DNA of 28,622 bases from Candidatus Nanohalobium sp. Its GTDB lineage: Archaea; Nanohalarchaeota; Nanosalinia; Nanosalinales; Nanosalinaceae. Below, piece by piece: positions 4,696-17,181 of the stretch (positions within the stretch are counted from its first letter, which is position 1; each line of letters opens with the position of its first letter). The stretch is from the NCBI GenBank assembly GCA_042217615.1, contig JBDGSI010000040.1:1-28622 (forward strand), given 5' to 3'. The position numbers and the translations under genes were made by a program. The notes beneath the pieces are model-generated. The model was given only the letters and a program-made list of their open reading frames with translations, had not been told where the DNA came from and did no database searches.

Positions 4696-5886
4696 ATGGA
4701 CCTGGACAGTGTTCCCCGGATAGCCAAATACCTTTCGACAGTTTTCCTACTTGTCTGGATAGGCAGAAGCACAGTCTGGATGTTCCTACCGGTATTCTTC
4801 CGCAGAAACATAGAAAGCGTCTTCCTTATAGGAGTAATGACCTCCCTACCCTCCATAATACCTGCAATACTGGATATACCTGTAGGAAAACTTGTGCAAA
4901 AAGCAGGAGAAAAATCAGTGGTATTCGCAGGCCTTATAACAACAGCAATACCTGCCTTACTGTATATAACTGCAGCACCTGTTCTCCTGGTAGCAGGGAA
5001 AGCGGTTGAAGGAGTTGCCAAATCACTTATATGGAACGGCGGCTGGTCTCTATCCCTGAAATCCTCAGATCCTGAAGTAGAATCGGAATCCGTCTCAGTA
5101 TTCCTTCTAGGAACAAACACCGGTATAGTAGTAGGCCCGATTCTCGGAGGCCTTATCCTCAAGGCCTACGGCTTTACAATACCGTTCATCTTCTGGATCT
5201 TCTCTGCCCTGCTTGCTGTAGCAGTTTTCTACGCCTACATAGGCCTTGATCTGGAGCAGGGTATCACTCGCTCTGTTGAGGAACTGATGAACAGAAGAAC
5301 GTATATGGATGAAGTAGAGGACTTTAGACAGTATTACAGTGTTTTGATGTATCCTTTCGCATTGACTTTTCTCTACAGCATTATCTTCTCCTTTTACTGG
5401 CTGACAATCCCGTTACTGCTTGAGAAGGTGAATGCAGGCTTCCCTCTAATGGGTGTTATCTTCGGAGTAGCAGCTCTTCCCAAACTTTTCCAGTTCGTAT
5501 TTGGAGACCTGGCGGACAGGTTCGGCCACTCCAAAATACTTGCAGGCCTTGCTCTATGCCTCACACCGGTTTTACTGGCAATGAGCCGGTTGGAAGGTGC
5601 CTTAATGCTGGGAGTGTTCTTCTTTATTGCAAGAATCTTCTCCGCAGGCATGTCTCCAGCAATACACGCCGAGTTCGATGCCAGGACGCCTGAAGAAGTT
5701 GAAGGAGAAATGACAGGTTTCCTGGAATTCTTCAAACATTCAGGACAAAGCATAGGCCCTATACTTGCAGGAACAGCAGCTTCAATATGGAGTCTTCAGG
5801 CCTCATTCATTGCAGCCGCTGCAGTAGCAGCTGTAATCTTTTTGACTGCTTTAACAAATACGGAAACGTTTTCAAAGCTTTTTTAA
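4696..5886 (+). CDS. Major facilitator superfamily transporter
   Basis: 396 aa, about 12 TM helices. MFS motif A variants PVGKLVQKAGEK and FGDLADRFGHSK; loop motif GIVVGPILGG. Confidence 0.92.
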   Translation: MDLDSVPRIAKYLSTVFLLVWIGRSTVWMFLPVFFRRNIESVFLIGVMTSLPSIIPAILDIPVGKLVQKAGEKSVVFAGLITTAIPALLYITAAPVLLVAGKAVEGVAKSLIWNGGWSLSLKSSDPEVESESVSVFLLGTNTGIVVGPILGGLILKAYGFTIPFIFWIFSALLAVAVFYAYIGLDLEQGITRSVEELMNRRTYMDEVEDFRQYYSVLMYPFALTFLYSIIFSFYWLTIPLLLEKVNAGFPLMGVIFGVAALPKLFQFVFGDLADRFGHSKILAGLALCLTPVLLAMSRLEGALMLGVFFFIARIFSAGMSPAIHAEFDARTPEEVEGEMTGFLEFFKHSGQSIGPILAGTAASIWSLQASFIAAAAVAAVIFLTALTNTETFSKLF

Positions 5887-6615
5887 CTCTGGGAACTTGA
5901 AGAGGCCTGCTTCACGGGAGACTGCAACCGCCTCCAGCTCGTTCTTGTCCACAAAGTTTCTTAGAACCGGTGAAAGAAGTTCCCTGCTAGGCATATTGTT
6001 CACTCCTGAACCCTGTGAAATAGTGGAGAAAGCAGGAAGCACTACAAGGCCTTTGCCTTCAGAGTTCTTGCCGTACAGGAAGCAGTTAACTTTCTCCTTC
6101 ACCCCTATATCATCTTTTAACTCCAGGGCAGGATGCTCATGACCTATAATAACAGTTTTAAACTTATCTGAGTTTACTTCAAGTTCCTTAAGGCTTATGT
6201 GGCCGTGTGTAAACAGTATACTGTTTTTAAGGAAGTATTTTTCCAGTTCAAATCCTTCCTCTTCCACTGCAGACTCTATAAATGTGTCATGATTTCCTTT
6301 TATCAGCACTACTTCACTGAATAGACTGTCAGCCTTCTCCAGAAAATCCTTTGTCTCCGATTTCTCCGCATACAAACTGGTTTTGAACTCGTTCTTCAAA
6401 TCGCCGTTCACAACCAGACGGAAGGCCTCTGTCTCCTCCTTAATCTTTTCAAGATCGCTTAGAATAGTTTCAAGCTGGAACTGAGGTATGTAACTTCCTT
6501 TCGAAGTCATTCCCTCCTCAAGGCCTAGATGCAGATCCGAGATCACAGCAGTATCTATCTCAGGGTGGTAGAGCGCCGGTAGACTGTCCACGGTTTGAAA
6601 CCCCAAGATTTCCAT
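5872..6615 (-). CDS. Metallophosphoesterase (calcineurin-like, COG1407-type)
   Basis: All five motifs present: SDLHLG, NGD, GNHD, HGH, GHEHP. C-terminal VLPAFS is typical of this subfamily. Confidence 0.9.
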   Translation of the reverse strand: MEILGFQTVDSLPALYHPEIDTAVISDLHLGLEEGMTSKGSYIPQFQLETILSDLEKIKEETEAFRLVVNGDLKNEFKTSLYAEKSETKDFLEKADSLFSEVVLIKGNHDTFIESAVEEEGFELEKYFLKNSILFTHGHISLKELEVNSDKFKTVIIGHEHPALELKDDIGVKEKVNCFLYGKNSEGKGLVVLPAFSTISQGSGVNNMPSRELLSPVLRNFVDKNELEAVAVSREAGLFKFPELKKL

Positions 6616-6658: not shown

Positions 6659-7342
6659 TTACTTGTCAATAAATGAATGGATTTTTTGAAGGGCTTCAGG
6701 TTGTTTAGAAGGCATTACCTCAAGAACTACTGGCCCTGAATATTCGTATGTTTCTAAAAGGTCAACGATTGCTTTGATATTTACTGTTCCTTCTCCGAGC
6801 GGAACGCCATCATTTTGACGAGTCCCATCAGCTAAGTGGATTACGGGTACTTCGTTAACAGAATAATTCTGTAGTAAGGCCTCAATAAATGGAAGATAGG
6901 TTTCCTCGCTCATGTGTATATGTGCGGTATCCAAGACGAGAGAGTGCTCATTTGACAGATGGAAATTTCTAAGGTAGTATTTGCTTACACTTGGATCGTT
7001 TTCATATCCTACTGTCTCAGCAACTGCATCAGAGGAAGGGTAAACTTTCGGTGCGTACCTTGTACCTATAGGATTGGAGTCAAAGATAAGAACGGCTGAA
7101 AGCTTAGCTGCAATCTCATCCGCTTGACGGAAGTAAGGCCTTGGATCTGTATCTGCTTCAATATGTGGAGTATGTACGGAAACAATTTGGCCTGCAGAGT
7201 CTTGACAAACTTCAATAATTTCATCCGCTGAATTGTTTTCCAATTGGGTTTCTGTCAGGTATAGTTCAAAATGGTCGAATCCTTCATTATACAGCTTTTC
7301 AAATTTCTTTTTTTCAGGAGGAAGTTTTCCTGCGATTTTCAT
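6659..7342 (-). CDS. Sugar phosphate isomerase/epimerase (AP endonuclease 2 / xylose isomerase-like TIM barrel)
   Basis: Motifs SVHTP, YEN, VLDTAH, VIHLAD, PLGEGTVN and VVLEV. Confidence 0.8.
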   Translation of the reverse strand: MKIAGKLPPEKKKFEKLYNEGFDHFELYLTETQLENNSADEIIEVCQDSAGQIVSVHTPHIEADTDPRPYFRQADEIAAKLSAVLIFDSNPIGTRYAPKVYPSSDAVAETVGYENDPSVSKYYLRNFHLSNEHSLVLDTAHIHMSEETYLPFIEALLQNYSVNEVPVIHLADGTRQNDGVPLGEGTVNIKAIVDLLETYEYSGPVVLEVMPSKQPEALQKIHSFIDK

Positions 7343-10014: not shown

Positions 10015-10485
10015 TCAGTACCCCAGGTTATCGCATTTTTCGTTGCCTTTGTCTGTCAGGTTGCCGTTGCTGCAGATATAGTTTAAGGCCTCTGACATGT
10101 TAGCAGTTCTCTGATCCTGTCCTTCGATTTCCTGCGTTAAGTTCTGAATTTTCTCATCTTTTGTATCAATCTTGGTTCTAAGCTCTTTGACTGTACTGTT
10201 TTTACTGCTTAAACGGCTTTTAATACTTGTTAACTGGCTTTTCAGGTTTGAAATGCTTCTATTCATGGATTTAATCTTTCTTGTCAGGTTTTCTTTTTCA
10301 ACTTGAAGACGGTTAACCTGATCTCTCTTCTCCTCAAGTGACTGTGTCAAGTTTTTTTTGGAGGTTACCAGGTCGTTTAACTGTGACTGGTACAGTACGG
10401 AGAGACCTGCCAGAAGCGACAGCACTACAACTGTTGAAATCAGTAGAAAAGGATTCAGACGTCGTTTAAGTAGAGATGCAGCCAT
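10015..10485 (-). CDS. Membrane-anchored long coiled-coil protein
   Basis: N-terminal TM (PFLLISTVVVLSLLAGLSVLY), ~100 aa of heptad repeats and a terminal Cys pair. Confidence 0.8.
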   Translation of the reverse strand: MAASLLKRRLNPFLLISTVVVLSLLAGLSVLYQSQLNDLVTSKKNLTQSLEEKRDQVNRLQVEKENLTRKIKSMNRSISNLKSQLTSIKSRLSSKNSTVKELRTKIDTKDEKIQNLTQEIEGQDQRTANMSEALNYICSNGNLTDKGNEKCDNLGY

Positions 10486-10625: not shown

Positions 10626-12269
10626 ATGAGCCACGGCGGAGATCTCCCGGATACCTGTAAATTTGGCCATGTTTTCCAGATACCTGGGAAAGCGGAGAAA
10701 GGCCTTAGTGGTGCCTGGGCGGATGCGAAGTCAAGGATTGAAAGCGGGGAGATCAGGGATCTCTATGATTTGGAGAGCGAGATGGGTACTGACACCTTGA
10801 TGCCTCTGCTGGGAAGTCACTGGAAGAAGGTTAAGGTCTCTGCTGGAAGCCAGGGAACTCCTTACGGATTTGTATTAACTGCTGCAGACTGGTTCGATGA
10901 GCATAAGGGTTACACAGTTAACAGGACGGAGGAGGGGATTTACGTGGCTCCTCAAAGCCAGTTGCATGACTCTTTTATGCAGAGAAAGCAGCAGGCAGAG
11001 CAGAGAGTTAAGGAAAACATGCGTAATATATCTGAATTGATGAAGCAGAAGCACATGCTTGAACATGATATCAGAAAGCTGCGTTCCCGGGCTGAAGCAA
11101 TGAGTGAGAAGGATGAAGCCGTTTTGAAAGGAGATTTCGTTGAACTGGTTGACGGCGCTGGGGGAGGCCAGCAGGGAGGTGATGAGGCCTCACTCAAATT
11201 TTTGAGAGACCAGAACATTTACCCGTCGATTGTATCAGATTTCTACGAGATGGAATCCGTAGACGATCTTAAGTACGCTGATCAAAGAGATGACGATAAG
11301 GACGGGGTTCTAGCGGATAGGCCTAAGAATGAGAAAGCTATACTGAAGAGAAAGTACACGATGTATGAGAAATGGAAGGATCTGTACGGCTCTGAGGTCA
11401 ACAGGAAGCTTGAGGAGTTGAAAGGCCAGTTGAAAAGTATTGAAAGATCTATAGAGGAGACCAAGGAGTGGCTGGAGCCTTACGTCAAAGACATGGTTCA
11501 GATCAACAAGATGGGCGATCTACAGGATGATCAGACAAAGTATTATGAGTGGAAAGGAAACTCCTCCCTACAGAGAAACCTTGAATTCATATGCTACAAG
11601 CCTCTGGTGAAAGAGGAAGGAGATATAGTCGTAACCGACAATGAAGAGGAGGCCACACATTTCAGAATAGTGTATATTCACGGCGTCCACGTAAACCTTG
11701 CTAACCCGGAGCAACCTGAGTCACCTGCTGATGGGCCTTCAAGCGGAGTGGTGATGTGGTTCCCAGCAGTTGTCTGCCGCCACGTATGGGAACGGTTCTT
11801 CAAAGCCAAAGTCGAAAAAGCCCAAAGCCAGACAGAACAACTGATGAAAGACTACACAGGAGAATTCGAGACAAAAGAAGGCGAAAAACTGAAAGAAGCC
11901 CGGAAAGAAAACGACATGAGTGTCAGAGAGCTTAGAGAAGCCATGCAAGAAGAAATAGACGAAGAAATACCTTTAGAAGGATCTGCCAAGATAAGAAGAA
12001 TAGAAGACGGCCTCGACCCTGTAACAGTACTTAACGAAGACTACATTGAGGCCTTAACCACTGTACTAGACAGCCTTGAACTCGGTGATGAATCAAAGGA
12101 TGAGGAAATGATAGGCGGTATTGAAAAAACCTTGAAGAAGTTTGCAGGCCTTACAGATCCCTATGTAATTCCTAGTGGAGCAGATCCCTTAGGAGATTTG
12201 ACGGATGATATGTGGTACAATTATTACTGGGATGTGAAGCAGAACTTTGGCCTTTACACTATGAAATAG
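10626..12269 (+). CDS. Hypothetical 547 aa protein with coiled coils and a C-terminal XRE-like HTH
   Basis: Long ORF with acidic composition. Coiled coils at ~aa 115-160 and 255-290; HTH-like segment at aa 419-482. Confidence 0.85.
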   Translation: MSHGGDLPDTCKFGHVFQIPGKAEKGLSGAWADAKSRIESGEIRDLYDLESEMGTDTLMPLLGSHWKKVKVSAGSQGTPYGFVLTAADWFDEHKGYTVNRTEEGIYVAPQSQLHDSFMQRKQQAEQRVKENMRNISELMKQKHMLEHDIRKLRSRAEAMSEKDEAVLKGDFVELVDGAGGGQQGGDEASLKFLRDQNIYPSIVSDFYEMESVDDLKYADQRDDDKDGVLADRPKNEKAILKRKYTMYEKWKDLYGSEVNRKLEELKGQLKSIERSIEETKEWLEPYVKDMVQINKMGDLQDDQTKYYEWKGNSSLQRNLEFICYKPLVKEEGDIVVTDNEEEATHFRIVYIHGVHVNLANPEQPESPADGPSSGVVMWFPAVVCRHVWERFFKAKVEKAQSQTEQLMKDYTGEFETKEGEKLKEARKENDMSVRELREAMQEEIDEEIPLEGSAKIRRIEDGLDPVTVLNEDYIEALTTVLDSLELGDESKDEEMIGGIEKTLKKFAGLTDPYVIPSGADPLGDLTDDMWYNYYWDVKQNFGLYTMK

Positions 12270-12282
12270 AGATGATAACTGT

Positions 12283-14988
12283 ATGGCTTTCCTGATTGAC
12301 CGGTTGAAAGAGAAGTTTGATGTAGAGGATGGAGAATATGATAGGGACAGCTTCAACTACAAGGTAGGAAACACTTCTGGCATGGATGTTACACAGCAGA
12401 TCCCCTCCGAGATAGCTCAGAGAGTAGGCCAGATGGCTCAGAGAGGAGGAGGGACGATGGAGATACAGGTGGAGAACCCTACAACTTTCTACATCGACAG
12501 AGAAAGCCTCTACGAAGTAATAGATGGTCTAGGCCTTGACATATCGATTCACAGCGACCCAAACATAGGGTATACCTCTGCCTACAAAACCGGTAGAGGC
12601 AGAGGATTTGATGTGGTGCAGGGATACTTCAGAGACTATCTGGAAAGCTTTGCCTCATTCAAACAGGAGATGAAGAACAGAGAGGATATTAACTTCAAAC
12701 TCAGCAGGATAAACCCTCACGTCTCTACAAGCCCTCAGCCTCCGCTACATGAGAGAATGGCGGATGACGTAGGCCTTGATCCTTTCGGATACAAGATAAG
12801 CGATCTGTCGGAAGAACTGATGGGAAAACGTTCAGAGAAAGGCCAGAACATCTTCAAAAACAAGGAGTTCCTGAGAAAACTGTATCACACATTCCTGCTG
12901 GAAGAAGTAGATTATGACTTCCAGTACTTCAGCCTTTTCGCCCGGTACTCCAAAAAATTCGAGAAAAAATGGAACCAGGCTCAGAGAGAAGCCACAAACG
13001 AATACTACCGCTGGAGAACAAACCCGGAAAACGGGAAAGTAGAAGACCTTACCGAAGCGGTAAGTGCAAAACTCTCCGTCATCAGAACCTCACAGGGCCA
13101 AGACAGAGGGATAGAGACAGCCTGGTTCGAACTCCTTGACAAACACGGCGACACAGAACTGCCTCTACTCAATATAGAGTTCGAACACACTGACGAAAAA
13201 GGCCTACAATGGGACTACACTGTAGAAGAAACAGAAGAAAGCGTAAACAGCATTCTGGCAGGAAGAGAAAACCTGGCGCTGCAAAGAGCGCCTGAGAGGA
13301 TATACAGTCTCAGAGAAAACCCGAAAGAAGTATTCGAAGGACCAGAGACCCGATATAACCCTAATCCCGGTAACCTTTTGATTGAGAGCACCGTTGAAGG
13401 CCTTGAAGACCTTGAGGATGAACAGCAGGGGGAAGTAAGGGAGAAGATTGAAAGGAAGAAGGAGGCGATCGCTGAGGAAGAGGGAATCTTTGAAGAGGCT
13501 GTTAGGGCCTTGGAGGAAAGTCTTGTCGATGCCTTGGATGAGTTGTGGGAGGGGAATGGTGAGGAGGAGATGTCTGTGGATGCCAAGATTGCTGCGTTGA
13601 GCAGCCACTTCGATATTCAGAAGATGAAGATACAGGAGCTGGCGTTTGAACTTGATGAGGAAGGTGAGCTGGAGGAGTCTGCTGAAAAGGTTTTGATGGG
13701 GGAGAAGGAGTACTTTGAGCAGGAAGGCCCTGAGGAGGATATGGGTGTTGATAACCATGCAGAGCTTTTGAGGCATCTGATTGCTTCCAACTTTGAGCAG
13801 CAGATATGGATGGAGTCCAACCTGTTTTACAGGGTTTTTCCGGCGTGGATGAGCTCTGCAGACACAGAGTATCCTGGTCACAACGGTTTCAAGGCCCCGA
13901 AGTTTATCTGGGAGACACTGGTTGAGAGGAAATGGGAGGATCGTTTTGAGCTTGATCTTACGGATGCTAGAGGGGGAGAGGATGAGAAAAAATACTTGGA
14001 TATGCTTGAGGAGAGCGCTGAGTTCCGAAGCGATGTGGCAGCGGCTTCTGCCGCATGCGTGATGTGGAGTCATTTCACGCAGATAGAGCAAAAGTTTGAA
14101 ATGGAAGGAAACCAGTATATTCAAGGTGATAACGGAGTATACACCTGGATCGAATGGATGAACAAGTACGGTATCGGCGTTAACATGGAGGCGATGGCTG
14201 GAAGCCCCAGTGAAAAGTTCAAGCTCTGGAGGCCTAAGGATATCGTGGCAGCATGCAGAGCTGTCAATATCACTGCCAGAGAAGAAGTAGAGGATGGCGA
14301 GCTTGGAGGAAAGGAAAGTATAGATGAGGAGCTGGATGGTTCGCCGGTAAAGTTCACTATAGATATGGAGCACACTGCAGGGTTCGGCGTAGACCCATGG
14401 GAAGAAATGGAGAAGCTTATAGAACAGGAGAAATGGCTGGCAGAACAGGATTTCAACGTCAAAGTCGACAAAGACAAACCTTTAGCCCATATAGTAAGGA
14501 TGTACCACCTTACCAAGCCAGGCCTTGAAACAAGCCAGGGAACAGGACACACCCATGGACCTTTCAGAAAAGGAGATGTAGAACTCTACGAATGGCTTTA
14601 CAACATGGCAGAGGCAGGATTCGCACAGAACCCCGGTGAGGAAGCCTCCGTAATGTACGAGGTAGGAGGGGAGCAGACAGCTACAGTGGTTCAGGCACAG
14701 CTGGCGATGGATATGATAGAGCTTGGAATATCTCCTGACGAGCTTGACCCAAGCAAAGTCGACCCAGATACACCGCATGAAGATGAAAAAGAAGCTTTAA
14801 TGGCAAAATTCTTCAGAATGGACCGTCCGAACTACAACAGAGAATGGGCAAAAATCGAAGAACACGCATTCGACCCTCTTGACGGCCTTCTGCAGGCTCA
14901 AGGCTTCGACTTCACCTGGTCCGGCAACGCTGCAATACAGCAAGGAGAAAACCGGCCAAACGAATGGAAACAGGAAGAATACCAGTAA
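12283..14988 (+). CDS. 901 aa endonuclease IV / xylose-isomerase-like TIM barrel metalloprotein with a large insertion
   Basis: Ordered metal-ligand motifs ISIH(90), INPH(146), GIGVNME(636), FTIDMEH(694/697), MYHL(742), GHTHGP(756/758) and VMYE(793). Starts 13 nt after the 547 aa gene. Confidence 0.75.
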   Translation: MAFLIDRLKEKFDVEDGEYDRDSFNYKVGNTSGMDVTQQIPSEIAQRVGQMAQRGGGTMEIQVENPTTFYIDRESLYEVIDGLGLDISIHSDPNIGYTSAYKTGRGRGFDVVQGYFRDYLESFASFKQEMKNREDINFKLSRINPHVSTSPQPPLHERMADDVGLDPFGYKISDLSEELMGKRSEKGQNIFKNKEFLRKLYHTFLLEEVDYDFQYFSLFARYSKKFEKKWNQAQREATNEYYRWRTNPENGKVEDLTEAVSAKLSVIRTSQGQDRGIETAWFELLDKHGDTELPLLNIEFEHTDEKGLQWDYTVEETEESVNSILAGRENLALQRAPERIYSLRENPKEVFEGPETRYNPNPGNLLIESTVEGLEDLEDEQQGEVREKIERKKEAIAEEEGIFEEAVRALEESLVDALDELWEGNGEEEMSVDAKIAALSSHFDIQKMKIQELAFELDEEGELEESAEKVLMGEKEYFEQEGPEEDMGVDNHAELLRHLIASNFEQQIWMESNLFYRVFPAWMSSADTEYPGHNGFKAPKFIWETLVERKWEDRFELDLTDARGGEDEKKYLDMLEESAEFRSDVAAASAACVMWSHFTQIEQKFEMEGNQYIQGDNGVYTWIEWMNKYGIGVNMEAMAGSPSEKFKLWRPKDIVAACRAVNITAREEVEDGELGGKESIDEELDGSPVKFTIDMEHTAGFGVDPWEEMEKLIEQEKWLAEQDFNVKVDKDKPLAHIVRMYHLTKPGLETSQGTGHTHGPFRKGDVELYEWLYNMAEAGFAQNPGEEASVMYEVGGEQTATVVQAQLAMDMIELGISPDELDPSKVDPDTPHEDEKEALMAKFFRMDRPNYNREWAKIEEHAFDPLDGLLQAQGFDFTWSGNAAIQQGENRPNEWKQEEYQ

Positions 14989-14993
14989 ACTCG

Positions 14994-15788
14994 CTAGAAA
15001 ACTATGTCAGTAAAACGCGAAGCCAGATCCTTACCTAAGTCCTTAACCCTCTGCCAGTAACCAGAATCATTATTCTTAAACCGCTCCATACTCAACTTCC
15101 TCTGCAAAACCCTGTCATCACCGACTACAGAAGCACCAGCAACCATATAACTATTTTCACCGCCGTCCACACCTCTAACACTGTAGTCAAAGTCTTCTCC
15201 AGACTCAAGATCCAAGGGTCCAGGCCAGTAATCCAAAACACTGTGCAGAGGCCTTGTAAAACCTTTCAAATCTGCTACAGAATGCAGAGCGCCTTTAACA
15301 CTGCCCTTCCAAGGAGAAACCCGGAAATCATCAAAACCGTCAAAACCGGTTAAATAGCCGTCATCAAGGCCTTCAAGACCTAAACGTTTCGAGGCCTCGA
15401 AACTGGTACGAGGCACGTTATAATCCGTTGTAAACATCAAAAGATTTCTGCCTTCATCACGCAGCTCCTCTAAAGCCTCTAAATCCTCAGCTCTACTCCC
15501 GCTGCCATCATAATCTATTTCCTCTACGTTAACGTCCAAGGCCTCTTCAACATCTTCAACATAGTCAGGCATAGCATAGACTGTGCCGTTAAAACCTATC
15601 TCCTCTAAAGCCCCGATACTCTGCTCCAGATAAACGTCTTCCTCGTAATCAGGTACACCCAGAAGAGCGGCGTCAAGGCCTTCATCCTGCCTCTCAGACA
15701 GATAGCCTCTAACCTTTTCACCGTTGAACTCTTCATCGAATCCTTCACTGTTCCTGACATTTGGAGGAGTAAGCATTTCCTCTATCAT
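14994..15788 (-). CDS. Hypothetical acidic protein, possibly a degenerate DUF218/YdcF-like fold
   Basis: 264 aa ORF with strong D/E bias. LLMFTTDYNVPRT resembles the DUF218 VTSxYHxPR motif. Confidence 0.7.
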   Translation of the reverse strand: MIEEMLTPPNVRNSEGFDEEFNGEKVRGYLSERQDEGLDAALLGVPDYEEDVYLEQSIGALEEIGFNGTVYAMPDYVEDVEEALDVNVEEIDYDGSGSRAEDLEALEELRDEGRNLLMFTTDYNVPRTSFEASKRLGLEGLDDGYLTGFDGFDDFRVSPWKGSVKGALHSVADLKGFTRPLHSVLDYWPGPLDLESGEDFDYSVRGVDGGENSYMVAGASVVGDDRVLQRKLSMERFKNNDSGYWQRVKDLGKDLASRFTDIVF

Positions 15789-15869: not shown

Positions 15870-15913
15870 GGAAAGGTTTTTAAGTTTGCGTCAAGTATGG
15901 TTCTGTATAGGTG
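15870..15913 (+). promoter_or_regulatory. BRE/TATA plus Shine-Dalgarno for the nucleotidyltransferase gene
   Basis: GGAAAGGTTTTTAAGT (15870-15885) and AGGTG (15909-15913), the latter 8 nt before ATG 15922. Confidence 0.65.
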
Positions 15914-15921
15914 TTTGGAAA

Positions 15922-17181
15922 ATGAGTTCTAAGGATAAGATGAAGGAGATGCGTGAGAAGTCTCAGGAGAGGCGGATGGAGTCTGCTGAGGAGTTCTCAA
16001 GTAAGCTTAATGAAAAGCTGGGCGATAAAGTGAAGGTTGTAGCTGTCTGGGGTAGTGTCGCGAAAGGAGAGCACGGCCATGACTCTGATATCGATACTCT
16101 TGTCGTTTTAGATGATACTAAGCTTCAGAAAGATGTTCCAAAAGATGCTAAGAAGAAAATCAGGAAGAAGGTTACTCAGCTTGCCAAAGATACGGATGAC
16201 AGGATAACTATACAGTACTTTCCGTTCCTGACCGAGTTCTGGGATGCTCTCAGGAAAGGAGAGCCTCTTGCAATCGAAGCAGTGCGTAACGGAGAACCTG
16301 TCTACGATACAGGCATCTTCATGCCCGCCAAGAGACTGCTGGAAAGAGGTAAGATTACAGGCACCCGTGAATCGGTGAAGAAACGTCTTAAAATGGGTGC
16401 AGCAGGCTACAAGAAAGCTGAGAAAAACTTGAGATCCTCCATCCCGCATAAACTGGAGCAGGCAATGGCAAACGCTGGTCAAGCACCTATCATGCTTGCG
16501 GGAAAGAAACCTCCAGCAAAGGAGAACGTACCGGATACGCTGGAGGAAATGTTCGTGGAAAAAGACATGCTCGAACAGGAGTACGTTGACAAAGCCCGTG
16601 AAATATTCGAATTCGGAGACCTGGGAGAAAAGAACCCGGAAGAAGTCAAAGGAGGAGAAATCGAGGAACACATGCAGAAAACAGATGACTTCGTCCGCAG
16701 AATGCACAAACTTGTCTCACAGCTTGGCTCCAAGAAAAAAGTACAGAACATCGTACAGGACTACAAAAAATTCCTTAAGGCAAACGTCGCCGCACTCAAA
16801 AGCAAAGGCGTAACACCGCCAGAAGACAAAGAAGACCTTCCGGAAACTGTCGCAGAAAACCTGGACGTAGACGAAGAACACGTAGAAATGTTCAACCAGT
16901 GGGAAAAAGTCATCCAGAAGATAAAAGACAAAAACATGGACGAAGTCGACGAAAAAGAACTCTACGAACTCAAAAACCAGACAAGAGAATTCGTATCCAA
17001 CGTCGGCGAAGACCTCCAGAAAATGAAGGAAGAAGAACAGAAACAAGCAGAAAACATGACACCAGACATGGACCCATCATCAATCGCCAAAGCAGCCGAC
17101 CCAGACGAAGCAGTACCCAACCTAGAAGAAAAAGCGGAAAAAGAAGCAGAAACAGAGGAAAGCAAAAAAGAACAAGCCTAA
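15922..17181 (+). CDS. Minimal nucleotidyltransferase (Pol-beta family) fused to a HEPN-like helical domain, with acidic C-terminal extension
   Basis: WGSVAKGEHGHDSDIDTLVVLDD (GS...DxD motif), followed by a HEPN-like four-helix region. The start is set at ATG 15922 because the TTG at 15886 abuts the TATA box. Confidence 0.85.
   Translation: MSSKDKMKEMREKSQERRMESAEEFSSKLNEKLGDKVKVVAVWGSVAKGEHGHDSDIDTLVVLDDTKLQKDVPKDAKKKIRKKVTQLAKDTDDRITIQYFPFLTEFWDALRKGEPLAIEAVRNGEPVYDTGIFMPAKRLLERGKITGTRESVKKRLKMGAAGYKKAEKNLRSSIPHKLEQAMANAGQAPIMLAGKKPPAKENVPDTLEEMFVEKDMLEQEYVDKAREIFEFGDLGEKNPEEVKGGEIEEHMQKTDDFVRRMHKLVSQLGSKKKVQNIVQDYKKFLKANVAALKSKGVTPPEDKEDLPETVAENLDVDEEHVEMFNQWEKVIQKIKDKNMDEVDEKELYELKNQTREFVSNVGEDLQKMKEEEQKQAENMTPDMDPSSIAKAADPDEAVPNLEEKAEKEAETEESKKEQA

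Follow-up and report, generated by a model that had tools for sequence, protein, structure and literature searches.

Endonuclease IV is a three-metal AP endonuclease and 3'-repair diesterase within Pfam family PF01261. MJ1311 of the archaeon Methanocaldococcus jannaschii is a predicted homologue of endonuclease IV (PMC2770678); its PDB entry, 3WQO, is titled 'D-tagatose 3-epimerase-like protein', function unknown, and we found no functional test of it in the literature. [quoted passage not shown] Here we analysed a window of 28,622 nucleotides from Candidatus Nanohalobium sp. (contig JBDGSI010000040.1), in which an endonuclease IV-like gene and an MNT-like gene belong to one conserved module. 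The module consists of three chromosomal genes in the order A, B, nucleotidyltransferase, all on a single strand, and we found no publication that describes it.

The preliminary description of this DNA had reported two large same-strand ORFs 13 nt apart, with a divergent gene upstream and a convergent gene downstream, and all of these were recovered (Table 1). It had also taken the pair to be a self-contained two-gene unit and a two-component machine. Neither view held, since the nucleotidyltransferase gene is a third member of the conserved set. With 183 database homologues of A and 142 of B at E ≤ 1e-3, and 40-75% identity within the phylum, A and B are real genes. They are probably co-translated; in the second phylum considered below, the stop codon of A and the start codon of B overlap or abut in many genomes. 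For the transferase gene, an alternative TTG lies upstream at position 15886.

Table 1. Features of the locus, with positions counted in the window and residues in the encoded proteins.
Feature	Position	Strand	Size or residues	Remarks
Divergent neighbour	10015..10485	-	156 aa	Upstream of A; N-terminal hydrophobic segment and coiled coil
Gene A	10626..12269	+	547 aa	Longest frame there
A, N-terminal alpha/beta domain			aa 1-107	From model
A, coiled-coil hairpin with small conserved tip subdomain			aa 112-304	From model
A, predicted B-binding surface	11055..11408	+	aa 144-261	H147, D148, V175 and W250 invariant across both phyla
A, beta domain			aa 314-384	From model
A, XRE/Cro-like HTH	11868..12092	+	aa 415-489	
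A, C-terminal helix			After HTH	From model
A-B spacer	12270..12282	+	13 nt	Stop to start; purine-rich GATGA 5' of B start codon
Gene B	12283..14988	+	901 aa	Longest frame there; EndoIV-like xylose-isomerase-fold TIM barrel with large insert
B, N-terminal barrel half	12355..12852	+	~aa 25-190	Strands 1-4; holds H90, H146
B, insert	12865..14082	+	~aa 195-600	~400 residues between barrel strands 4 and 5
B, C-terminal barrel half	14083..14742	+	~aa 601-820	Holds E636, D694, E696, H697, H742, H756, H758, E793
B, C-terminal tail	14734..14985	+	aa 818-901	Conserved; predicted docking site for A
Convergent gene	14994..15788	-	264 aa	Downstream of B; no family
KNTase/MNT-like nucleotidyltransferase	15922-17181	+	419 aa	Third gene; from ATG 15922

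A match to A was present in 68 of 70 Nanohaloarchaeota genomes and a match to B in 65 of them. A lay immediately 5' of B in about 61 of the 70, that is, in all where the contigs permit, and in about 60 the transferase gene followed 3' of B with the same orientation. All three genes were carried by each of the 28 high-quality genomes of the phylum (28/28), and the distance between B and the transferase gene was 36-170 nt in 28 genomes. A second DPANN phylum, which we call Aenigmatarchaeota from the labels of its named homologues (all so labelled), had a match to B in 150 of 151 sampled genomes. Inspection of 20 loci in this phylum showed A adjoining B in 19, the transferase gene right after B in 17 and the complete A-B-transferase order in 16. 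There, the gene upstream of B is homologous to A (hhalign probability 96.7-99.9%), and the gene after B is 26-29% identical to the transferase (E 2e-38 and 1e-48). The module is a core, mostly single-copy set in Nanohaloarchaeota and in this second phylum, where the co-occurrence of A and B bears out the earlier suggestion that similar pairs may exist in other DPANN lineages.

The convergent gene that separates B from the transferase gene in the window had a match in 6 of 70 genomes, at 30-37% identity, and in four of the five other genomes holding it, it lies on the opposite strand between the same two genes; it is a lineage-specific insertion in this genus, outside the module. Of the 70 genomes, about 23, every one from family f1, have the divergent neighbour directly 5' of A; in the others it occupies other places. 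It is a frequent, yet not constant, companion of A. Among the module's neighbours are also housekeeping genes, for instance one for a tRNA methyltransferase and those of the ATP synthase operon.

The model of the B protein (pLDDT 86.3, pTM 0.81) aligned with E. coli endonuclease IV (1qtw_A) at Z 18.7 and rmsd 3.3 over 260 of 285 residues, spanning model residues 25-819, in agreement with the EndoIV-like enzyme with a large helical insert recognized earlier. Helices make up most of the insert, which also has a long beta hairpin (aa 290-320); its middle is variable and its last helices are conserved. Part of it overlays the family of the second phylum, with 522 residues aligned and a TM of 0.70 by hit, and in families f2-f5 of Nanohaloarchaeota the B profile match breaks into N- and C-terminal parts around it. 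By the usual TIM-barrel rule, an insert after strand 4 would sit over the catalytic face and could block duplex DNA. The C-terminal tail shares a motif with the second phylum and is acidic in non-halophile orthologues (-4.2); its pLDDT in the monomer model is below 50 at aa 863-901, though E854-L870 holds invariant residues. As a whole, B is not basic in non-halophiles. The window protein fell below the Pfam, NCBIfam and PDB sequence thresholds, with no match to the nfo model or PF01261, and PF01261 was matched by 33 of 61 B relatives (best E 8.6e-22). The B family profile matched MJ1311 at 2.7e-6, EndoIV chains at 4.7e-5 to 1.6e-4 and psicose epimerases at E 0.5-0.95.

Eight of the nine metal-ligand positions of endonuclease IV are identical in B and conserved across both phyla, with equivalence taken from strand order and HMM alignments of relatives, not from coordinates; to this extent the near-complete trinuclear metal site proposed in the preliminary description is upheld. 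Across 73 sequences from both phyla, H90, H146, E636, D694, H742, H758 and E793 were 100% conserved, E696 99% and H697 97%. H90 and H146 are equivalent to Nfo H69 and H109, and the HMM alignment with T. maritima EndoIV spans both His motifs. The residues of the C-terminal half correspond strand by strand to Nfo E145, D179, H182, H216, D229, H231 and E261, the D229 position being His in the window protein or variable in the B family. The genome has a canonical Nfo at another site (280 aa, with E 4e-54 and 35% identity to the E. coli enzyme), which makes B a specialised paralogue. B is highly derived with respect to endonuclease IV and looks catalytically intact.

The third gene product comprises a KNTase/MNT-like core (PF01909 at 1.6e-10), followed by two helical domains, the first of them HEPN-like. 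Its best named relatives include ANT(4')-I (4.1e-8) and kanamycin nucleotidyltransferase; a GS...DxD motif is present and the match to MntA is weak. This protein of the Pol-beta superfamily is basic in non-halophiles. The HEPN Rx4H motif is kept in second-phylum orthologues and lost in Nanohaloarchaeota. Because the motif has been lost while the gene stays 60-83% identical across Nanohaloarchaeota, an RNase cannot be the conserved output.

The model of the A protein (pLDDT 74.6) supports, at the level of fold, the coiled coils and DNA-binding-type HTH attributed to it before. The hairpin is formed by two long helices (112-160 and 234-304), of which the second is basic in non-halophile orthologues (+11.7 per 100 aa). 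The HTH aligned with the N-terminal HTH domain of CapH (7t5u_A) at Z 8.7 and rmsd 2.6 over 64 of 66 residues (VIA-align), and its Atlas structure matches include HTH_3 families; a Pfam search of A gave no HTH match. S453, R457, R458, E460, D461 and G462 are invariant in this domain.

The earlier view of A and B as partners is in line with the interface predicted for a compact orthologous pair (403 and 514 aa), which gave an ipSAE of 0.64 (0.60-0.65 in three runs) compared to 0.00 for the best of three controls. An ipSAE of this height was attained by 58 of 80 solved complexes and by 2 of 110 mismatched pairs, counts that apply only roughly here because we used our own alignments. The interface was mapped from the orthologous pair to the window proteins by alignment, and on the B side it coincides with the conserved C-terminal tail. 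In this model A is predicted to clasp the tail of B together with the loop that follows strand 7 and carries ligands, which would place A beside the active site.

Our preferred reading, held tentatively, is that the module encodes a nucleic-acid end-processing complex whose three proteins act together in the cytoplasm. B would hydrolyse a phosphoester, at an abasic-site or 3'-blocking group or at a phosphate that is terminal or cyclic. The hydroxyl released in this step would then be extended with nucleotides by the transferase, and A would hold the substrate by its HTH and position it on B. The analysis established the genes with their order and conservation, the fold, the conserved ligands and a predicted A-B interface; what we infer is activity at the metal site, a DNA or RNA substrate, the sequence in which the reactions follow one another and what the transferase does. 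Hints of nucleic acid come from the invariant Arg-Arg of the HTH, the basic transferase of the Pol-beta superfamily and the Rx4H motif in the second phylum. Against end processing, small-molecule transferases such as ANT(4') are among the nearest relatives of the third protein by sequence, and B is not basic in non-halophiles. Of RNA runs, none was found to contain the locus.

The preliminary description had also named the A-B pair as a candidate effector for the AGGCCT and skew phenomena, with no link shown. The hexamer is indeed ten-fold enriched in the window (88 occurrences against 8.8 expected). At orthologous loci it is enriched in some genera only, and other module-bearing genera and the second phylum are without such enrichment. 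We rejected the link to AGGCCT, as enrichment does not track the presence of the module.

We consider it unlikely, though deserving of weight, that the module serves to salvage or remodel small molecules. B would then cut a phosphodiester bond of a cofactor, nucleotide-sugar or lipid head group acquired by scavenging, much as CbiR, a cobamide phosphodiesterase from its own superfamily, does, and the transferase would re-activate the hydroxyl with a nucleotide. Such a pathway would suit auxotrophic symbionts dependent on host metabolites, and the best named relatives of the transferase are small-molecule nucleotidyltransferases, with ANT(4')-I at 4.1e-8. Many small-molecule enzymes of the superfamily reach equal fold scores (Z 17-18), one homologue carries a glutaredoxin fusion, and the insert, in a position usually found on the catalytic face, could form a lid. 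In three second-phylum loci the module has nucleotide kinase genes nearby, but they are not conserved near it in Nanohaloarchaeota. B has all the His of the EndoIV type, a set characteristic of three-metal nucleases and not of one- or two-metal isomerases, the profile matches favour EndoIV and MJ1311, and the HTH of A, with its invariant arginines, also speaks against salvage. Improbable in our view is a domesticated MNT-HEPN circuit of the type VII toxin-antitoxin kind, in which the transferase would nucleotidylate a protein (itself, A or B) and B would remove the nucleotide as a phosphodiesterase, a cycle that switches an RNA-directed activity. The GS...DxD motif, the weak MntA match, the Rx4H of second-phylum orthologues and the resemblance by description to cls.004259 with its housekeeping context fit this circuit; the loss of the HEPN motif in Nanohaloarchaeota does not, no conserved acceptor tyrosine was found, and a Tyr near the C-terminus of B is absent from the second phylum.

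The EndoIV-like fold and ligands of B, together with the presence of ExoIII-family genes in only 3 of 21 relatives searched, could suggest a housekeeping abasic-site endonuclease for base excision repair with extra domains, A and the transferase being unrelated neighbours. We regard this as quite improbable: the canonical Nfo allows ordinary abasic-site repair without need for B, PF01261 is matched in 19 of 21 genomes searched (nearly all full-length), the two phyla share the A-B-transferase order, and binding of A to B is predicted. JGI, and NCBI in some cases, annotate homologues as 'sugar phosphate isomerase/epimerase'. That B is a sugar or sugar-phosphate isomerase/epimerase is very unlikely, even though epimerases lead the Foldseek lists for B and their fold scores (Z 17.0-18.4) are on a par with that of EndoIV. 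Those names derive from the PF01261 match alone. Ketose 3-epimerases have a Glu-Asp-His-Glu site, and the two N-terminal His, DxEH and HxH of B match the ligand positions of EndoIV, a larger set than that site. The match to a known sugar isomerase that the preliminary description had contemplated did not occur, as the profiles put MJ1311 and EndoIV well ahead of psicose epimerases and the EndoIV-specific His are invariant. These archaea also have very little sugar metabolism, which counts against an isomerase. An anti-virus defence or mobile-element system, an option raised earlier, has very little to commend it: defence islands often contain HTH, nuclease-like and MNT-like domains and there is a weak HalB match (6.9e-4), but a mostly single-copy core set in fixed order in 28/28 high-quality genomes, with housekeeping neighbours and with B in 150/151 second-phylum genomes, fits defence poorly. 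We give equally slight credence to a reading in which a peptide is the substrate, B being a multinuclear non-haem iron oxidase (MbnB/DUF692-like) and A the partner that binds the substrate. MbnB has a similar His/Asp/Glu multinuclear site and a partner protein, and its chains share the fold of B (7fc0_B, Z 14.0; 7dz9_B, Z 13.8). These scores are below that of EndoIV, neither a profile match nor a precursor-peptide gene was found, and many second-phylum members live without oxygen, ill-suited to an oxygen-dependent core enzyme.

Among described systems, MNT-HEPN (type VII toxin-antitoxin, MntA/HepT) resembles the third gene in having a GS...DxD core followed by a helical HEPN-like domain, and the housekeeping context of cls.004259 fits it, a likeness drawn by description. 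Unlike MNT-HEPN, the third gene is core and not patchy, has lost the HEPN motif in Nanohaloarchaeota, has one more helical domain at its C-terminus and is tied to A and B. Mre11-Rad50 (SbcCD) likewise combines a metal-dependent phosphoesterase with a partner that has a long antiparallel coiled coil between globular parts. Coiled coils of Rad50 and Smc match A in fold at Z 9-10, a range common for any long helices, and a Walker A (P-loop) motif was not seen on reading the A sequence. The Mre11 nuclease fold is unrelated to B, and in the A-B model it is the coiled coil itself, not the head, that touches the enzyme. MJ1311 is the best profile match of B among solved structures (E 2.7e-6) and has the highest identity in the list of fold matches, 16%, aligning at Z 17.9 and rmsd 3.6 over 261 of 267 residues; at 293 aa it is a bare barrel that lacks the insert, tail and partner genes of B. 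Endonuclease IV (E. coli Nfo, 1QTW; T. maritima EndoIV, 2X7V; yeast Apn1) has the same TIM barrel and the same order of ligands at the ends of strands 3-8. To this enzyme B adds an insert of ~400 residues and a conserved tail of ~80 residues predicted to bind a partner, and it is encoded with A and a nucleotidyltransferase in a genome where it coexists with a canonical Nfo.

The two large ORFs of the preliminary description, gene A (coiled-coil/HTH protein) and gene B (endonuclease IV-like protein), lie on the same plus strand of the window with a spacer of 13 nt, just as they had been reported. A divergent and a convergent gene flank them, as was also stated, but the view of A and B as a self-contained two-gene unit did not hold, since a nucleotidyltransferase gene (the transferase) is a third conserved member. 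The transferase ORF opens at a TTG (15886), while its homologues align from the ATG at 15922; judged from these alignments, the ATG is the likelier start. Housekeeping genes surround the module of A, B and transferase, namely an A-type ATP synthase operon, MoxR/DUF58, a tRNA methyltransferase and NUDIX. The source assembly measures 875 kb and is 81% complete, and the window is its contig C35.

Features of the module locus, and predicted metal-ligand positions of protein B with their proposed equivalents in E. coli endonuclease IV (Nfo)
Feature	Position	Strand	Product or equivalent
SbcD-related phosphoesterase gene	5872..6615	-	
PF01261 gene	6659..7342	-	227 aa
Divergent gene 5' of A	10015..10485	-	156 aa ORF
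AGGCCT just 5' of A start	10614..10619		
Gene A	10626..12269	+	547 aa ORF
Gene B	12283..14988	+	901 aa ORF
Convergent gene 3' of B	14994..15788	-	264 aa ORF
Transferase gene	15922..17181	+	419 aa
B ligand	H90		Nfo H69
B ligand	H146		Nfo H109
B ligand	E636		Nfo E145
B ligand	D694		Nfo D179
B ligand	H697		Nfo H182
B ligand	H742		Nfo H216
B ligand	H758		Nfo H231
B ligand	E793		Nfo E261

Database searches returned 142 homologues of B and 183 of A, 40-75% identical inside the phylum, and every named one carries the label Nanohaloarchaea; these source names assign the window to Nanohaloarchaeota. We surveyed 70 genomes of the phylum, 28 of them of high quality: B was present in 65, A in 68 and the transferase in 66, and each of the three was found in all 28 high-quality genomes. 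Coordinates showed that in about 61 genomes the distance from the end of A to B, 3' of it on the same strand, ranges from a few to a few hundred bases; the cases without this adjacent order are contig ends. In about 60 genomes the transferase lies 3' of B in the same orientation, at a distance of 36-170 nt in 28 and of 250-3700 nt in 32. It is the best-conserved member of the module (60-83% identity across the phylum) and is usually single-copy. A second partial copy of B, or a B match in two pieces, was seen at G061:C1:132309-133809 and also at the B locus of two further genomes (G050, G055). Defence had been listed among the possible roles of the pair; a near-universal module with a fixed gene order and, mostly, one copy per genome does not describe a defence island.

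The convergent gene fills the gap between B and the transferase in this genus. It was rejected as part of the module because only 6 of the 70 genomes hold a match, at 30-37% identity, and we regard it as a lineage-specific insertion on the same grounds. Its product is acidic and fast-evolving. In four other genomes it occupies the same place, each time on the strand opposite to the operon, and a fifth match lies on another contig; further genomes have gaps of 0.5-2.4 kb at this position. The product of the divergent gene combines an N-terminal hydrophobic segment with a coiled coil, and the gene lies divergently and directly 5' of A in about 23 of the 70 genomes, which all belong to one family, and elsewhere in the remainder.

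A profile search covering 1.84 billion representatives recovered distant relatives of B, of 500-750 aa, which have the C-terminal half in common with it; the named ones carry the label Aenigmatarchaeota, a second phylum. PF01261 was matched by 33 of 61 of these relatives at E<=0.01, the best at E 8.6e-22. In their loci a 400-650-aa protein without a Pfam family precedes the B relative, which is followed by one or two NTP_transf_2 genes. Homology of the upstream protein to A was established by hhalign (probability 96.7-99.9%), and the downstream gene shares 26-29% identity with the window transferase (E 2e-38 and 1e-48). The B family occurred in 150 of the 151 sampled genomes of the phylum reached via one such locus, L014. 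Among 20 loci extended there, A adjoins B in 19, the transferase lies directly 3' of B in 17 and all three stand together in 16; the stop codon of A often overlaps the start of B. The suggestion that similar pairs may occur in other DPANN lineages was thus borne out for the pair, although the unit found there has three genes, not two. Atlas leads hint that the module may be spread more widely across DPANN.

Some variation accompanies this second-phylum arrangement. Two transferase paralogues in tandem, one of about 300 aa and one of 360-400 aa, often close the module (L012:7246-9287, L013:8024-10009, L014:8022-10196), and only the longer has a HEPN R-x4-H motif and an extra C-terminal helical domain; a similar distant pair lies elsewhere in a few Nanohaloarchaeota genomes (e.g. 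G003:C14). One B homologue of 617 aa (P0306, labelled Aenigmatarchaeota) bears a glutaredoxin domain (Pfam 3.4e-10) and has the source name 'glutaredoxin'.

Neither A nor B of the window gave a usable match in Pfam, NCBIfam or PDB sequences. For B, no NCBIfam or Pfam match to the nfo model (TIGR00587) or PF01261 appeared even at E<=1, and hhalign with B alignments gave no significant match to E. coli Nfo. The AlphaFold model of B (pLDDT 86.3, pTM 0.81) is a xylose-isomerase-like (beta/alpha)8 barrel. In a structure search independent of local alignment its top match was Nfo itself (1qtw_A; Z 18.7, rmsd 3.3, 260 of 285 residues aligned, model residues 25-819), with further EndoIV-type matches to 2x7w_A (Z 17.8) and 8axy_A (Z 17.2). 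Foldseek against PDB and Swiss-Prot models returned only weak half-barrel matches because the insert of B interrupts local alignment. MJ1311 and sugar epimerases tie with endonuclease IV within one Z unit, so the fold alone cannot tell nuclease from isomerase.

Searched against PDB sequences, the B family profile reached MJ1311, the predicted EndoIV homologue of M. jannaschii according to Kiyonari et al. (PMC2770678), at E 2.7e-6, followed by T. maritima EndoIV (4.7e-5), another EndoIV (5.1e-5) and the ASFV AP endonuclease (1.6e-4), with E. coli Nfo at 0.03. Psicose epimerases scored E 0.5-0.95 only, and the difference between these values and the 2.7e-6 to 1.6e-4 of MJ1311 and EndoIV argues against a place for B in the ketose 3-epimerase or sugar-phosphate isomerase branch of PF01261. 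The preliminary description had named a match to a known sugar isomerase as its contrary case; what emerged was MJ1311 and EndoIV far ahead of the psicose epimerases. Taken together, profile scores and ligand order do set B apart as putatively nuclease-like rather than isomerase-like.

Eight of the nine Nfo ligand positions appear to be matched in B, by residues 97-100% conserved among 73 sequences from both phyla, with the equivalences taken from the order of ligands at the ends of strands 3-8 and from HMM alignments, not from coordinates. In the HMM alignments the two N-terminal His motifs, the DxxH and the strand-7 His motifs of B fall on those of T. maritima EndoIV. The ninth Nfo ligand, D229, corresponds to His756, a position that is poorly aligned and not well conserved across the family. 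This agrees with the Asp-to-His change noted previously, and the near-complete trinuclear site claimed with it is supported at the eight positions and not at the D229 counterpart. The large helical insert was likewise confirmed in the model: it spans approximately residues 195-600, consists mainly of helices with one long beta hairpin, and recurs in part in the second-phylum family, where a superposition of 522 residues gave TM 0.70 by hit. Following strand 4 as it does, the insert may be positioned on the catalytic face of B. The last 40 residues are modelled with low confidence, yet contain an invariant run from E854 to L870, and this tail motif also terminates the second-phylum proteins.

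The same genome (G000) encodes a canonical endonuclease IV on another contig (C69; L071:263-1102, minus strand). This enzyme is 280 aa long, has all nine ligand motifs and shares 35% identity with E. coli Nfo (E 4e-54). We therefore rejected B as the sole AP endonuclease and regard it as a specialised paralogue rather than an ordinary enzyme of this kind. Across 21 genomes searched, PF01261 matches, nearly all full-length, were found in 19 and ExoIII-family genes in only 3. A second phosphoesterase gene pair lies 3 kb from the module; its 227-aa PF01261 protein matches just the C-terminal part of the model and has a weak CbiR-like match, and the adjoining gene encodes an SbcD-related archaeal phosphoesterase (TIGR00024, 1.1e-43).

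The transferase carries the GSx(n)DxD motif, with G44, S45, D56 and D58 invariant in its alignment, matches PF01909 (1.6e-10) and is weakly similar to ANT(4')-I, kanamycin nucleotidyltransferase and MntA. Its identity as a divergent CCA-adding enzyme was rejected, since this genome and 20 of 21 genomes searched encode a canonical class 1 enzyme (PF09249).

The model of A (pLDDT 74.6) shows, in order, an N-terminal alpha/beta domain, an antiparallel helix pair, a beta domain, a putative HTH of the XRE/Cro type and a final helix. At the turn between the two long helices (residues 112-160 and 234-304) sits a small subdomain of high conservation. Structure matches were confined to the coiled coil (Z 9-10, values common for long helices) and the HTH, where residues 415-489 matched 7t5u_A (Z 8.7, rmsd 2.6, 64 of 66 aligned), a Z common for helical domains. 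Residues 415-489 also drew Atlas rows with HTH_3 families (TM 0.62 by hit) and no Pfam match; Foldseek of A found nothing. The coiled coils described earlier are thus in the model, and the DNA-binding-type HTH remains a candidate. Residues invariant in both phyla lie in the hairpin: P109, H147, D148, R150, F171, V175, D176, P200, D205, F206, L240, K243, W250 and P285. An Atlas shape search paired the globular parts of A (within residues 10-543) with an archaeal family of 172 aa, superposing 149 residues at rmsd 3.8 (TM 0.65 by hit); this family has 1354 members and is most frequent in Aenigmatarchaeota. For A and its neighbours, hhalign found no relation between A and the approximately 175-aa genes adjoining the second-phylum module.

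Complex prediction was run on the compact orthologous pair of locus L019 (B' of 514 aa and A' of 403 aa, with our own alignments), the window pair amounting to 1448 aa. The complex score (ipSAE) was 0.64 (0.60-0.65 in three runs), while the highest of three controls scored 0.00; this mark is attained by 58 of 80 solved complexes and by 2 of 110 mismatched pairs, counts that are only rough with our own alignments. Mapped to the window proteins, the predicted interface on A comprises residues 144-155, 170-198 and 233-261, including the invariant H147, D148, V175 and W250. On B it comprises 745-767, the loop after strand 7 with the HxH ligands, the region around 800, and the conserved tail at 818-879. 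Orthologues from non-halophiles have a basic second long helix in A and an acidic tail in B, and net charge by domain revealed no basic, DNA-binding-like insert in B. The multimer check proposed earlier for the pair thus returned, for these orthologues, a predicted interface, a result which supports, and does not show, that A binds B.

The preliminary description had also proposed the pair as a candidate effector for AGGCCT. This hexamer occurs 88 times in the 28.6-kb window against 8.8 expected (sd 3.1; largest shuffle 16), and one copy lies just 5' of the A start. At orthologous module loci, enrichment is seen in this genus and at both loci from one other genus of the family. Five loci from three further genera show none, and the second phylum has 26 copies where 27 are expected. 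Enrichment is patchy among module-bearing genera and does not follow module presence, so AGGCCT was rejected as the module target and the proposed link falls.

What the module does can be approached through its parts, which fit a complex acting on nucleic-acid ends; we hold this reading tentatively, at somewhat below an even chance. In such a complex B would be a three-metal phosphoesterase, the transferase would supply Pol-beta-type nucleotidyltransfer, and A would be an HTH-bearing adaptor placed at the B active site. The main rival is salvage or remodelling of small molecules, in keeping with the substrates of the named transferase relatives and of much of the barrel superfamily; we consider it unlikely. 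A domesticated MNT-HEPN nucleotidylation cycle appears very unlikely.

A bolder version of end processing is suggested by the predicted interface. Because the model sets H147 and D148 of A against the HxH-ligand loop of B, and the counterpart of Nfo Asp229 is not conserved in B, these two residues of A would act in trans on the third metal site, either completing or gating it. Activity of B would then require that A has loaded a nucleic-acid end, and the product would pass to the transferase. The module could on this basis be an undescribed DPANN-wide machine, a cut, heal and tail pathway of reduced symbionts, which we judge quite unlikely.

Our literature search for the A-B-transferase unit found no description of it, and Makarova and colleagues counted only 47 DPANN-specific, near-universal clusters of unknown function (PMC6393860). 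Three DPANN genes of unknown function here become one conserved unit with a recognisable catalytic centre and a predicted protein-protein interface. The compact, non-halophilic version at L019 (403 + 514 + 406 aa) should suit expression and thereby open this DPANN 'dark matter' to biochemistry. If the enzyme works on nucleic-acid ends, the endonuclease IV family would gain a new architecture, and a repair or RNA-processing pathway specific to the lineage would perhaps come with it; should the substrate instead be a metabolite scavenged from the host, the finding would inform on how these symbionts exploit their hosts.

Unlike the SMC/Rad50 coiled-coil ATPases, with which it shares the coiled coil alone, A has no Walker A motif by reading and no P-loop family in Pfam or NCBIfam. 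Whereas the ketose 3-epimerase branch has a single Glu-Asp-His-Glu metal site, B has additional invariant His residues at strands 3 and 4 and after strand 7. The window transferase fits the description of a DPANN-specific family that Makarova, Wolf and Koonin rank among their priority unknowns, 'MNT fused to HEPN ... typically in house-keeping context' (PMC6393860), and may belong to it. It lacks Arg and His at the place aligned with the HEPN Rx4-6H RNase motif, whereas the longer second-phylum orthologues keep a HEPN-type R-x4-H, reading R-K-K-[IV]-E-H. In contrast to the type VII MNT-HEPN toxin-antitoxin systems, which are patchy, mobile, often multi-copy two-gene pairs, the transferase is found in 66 of 70 genomes and holds a fixed place after B.
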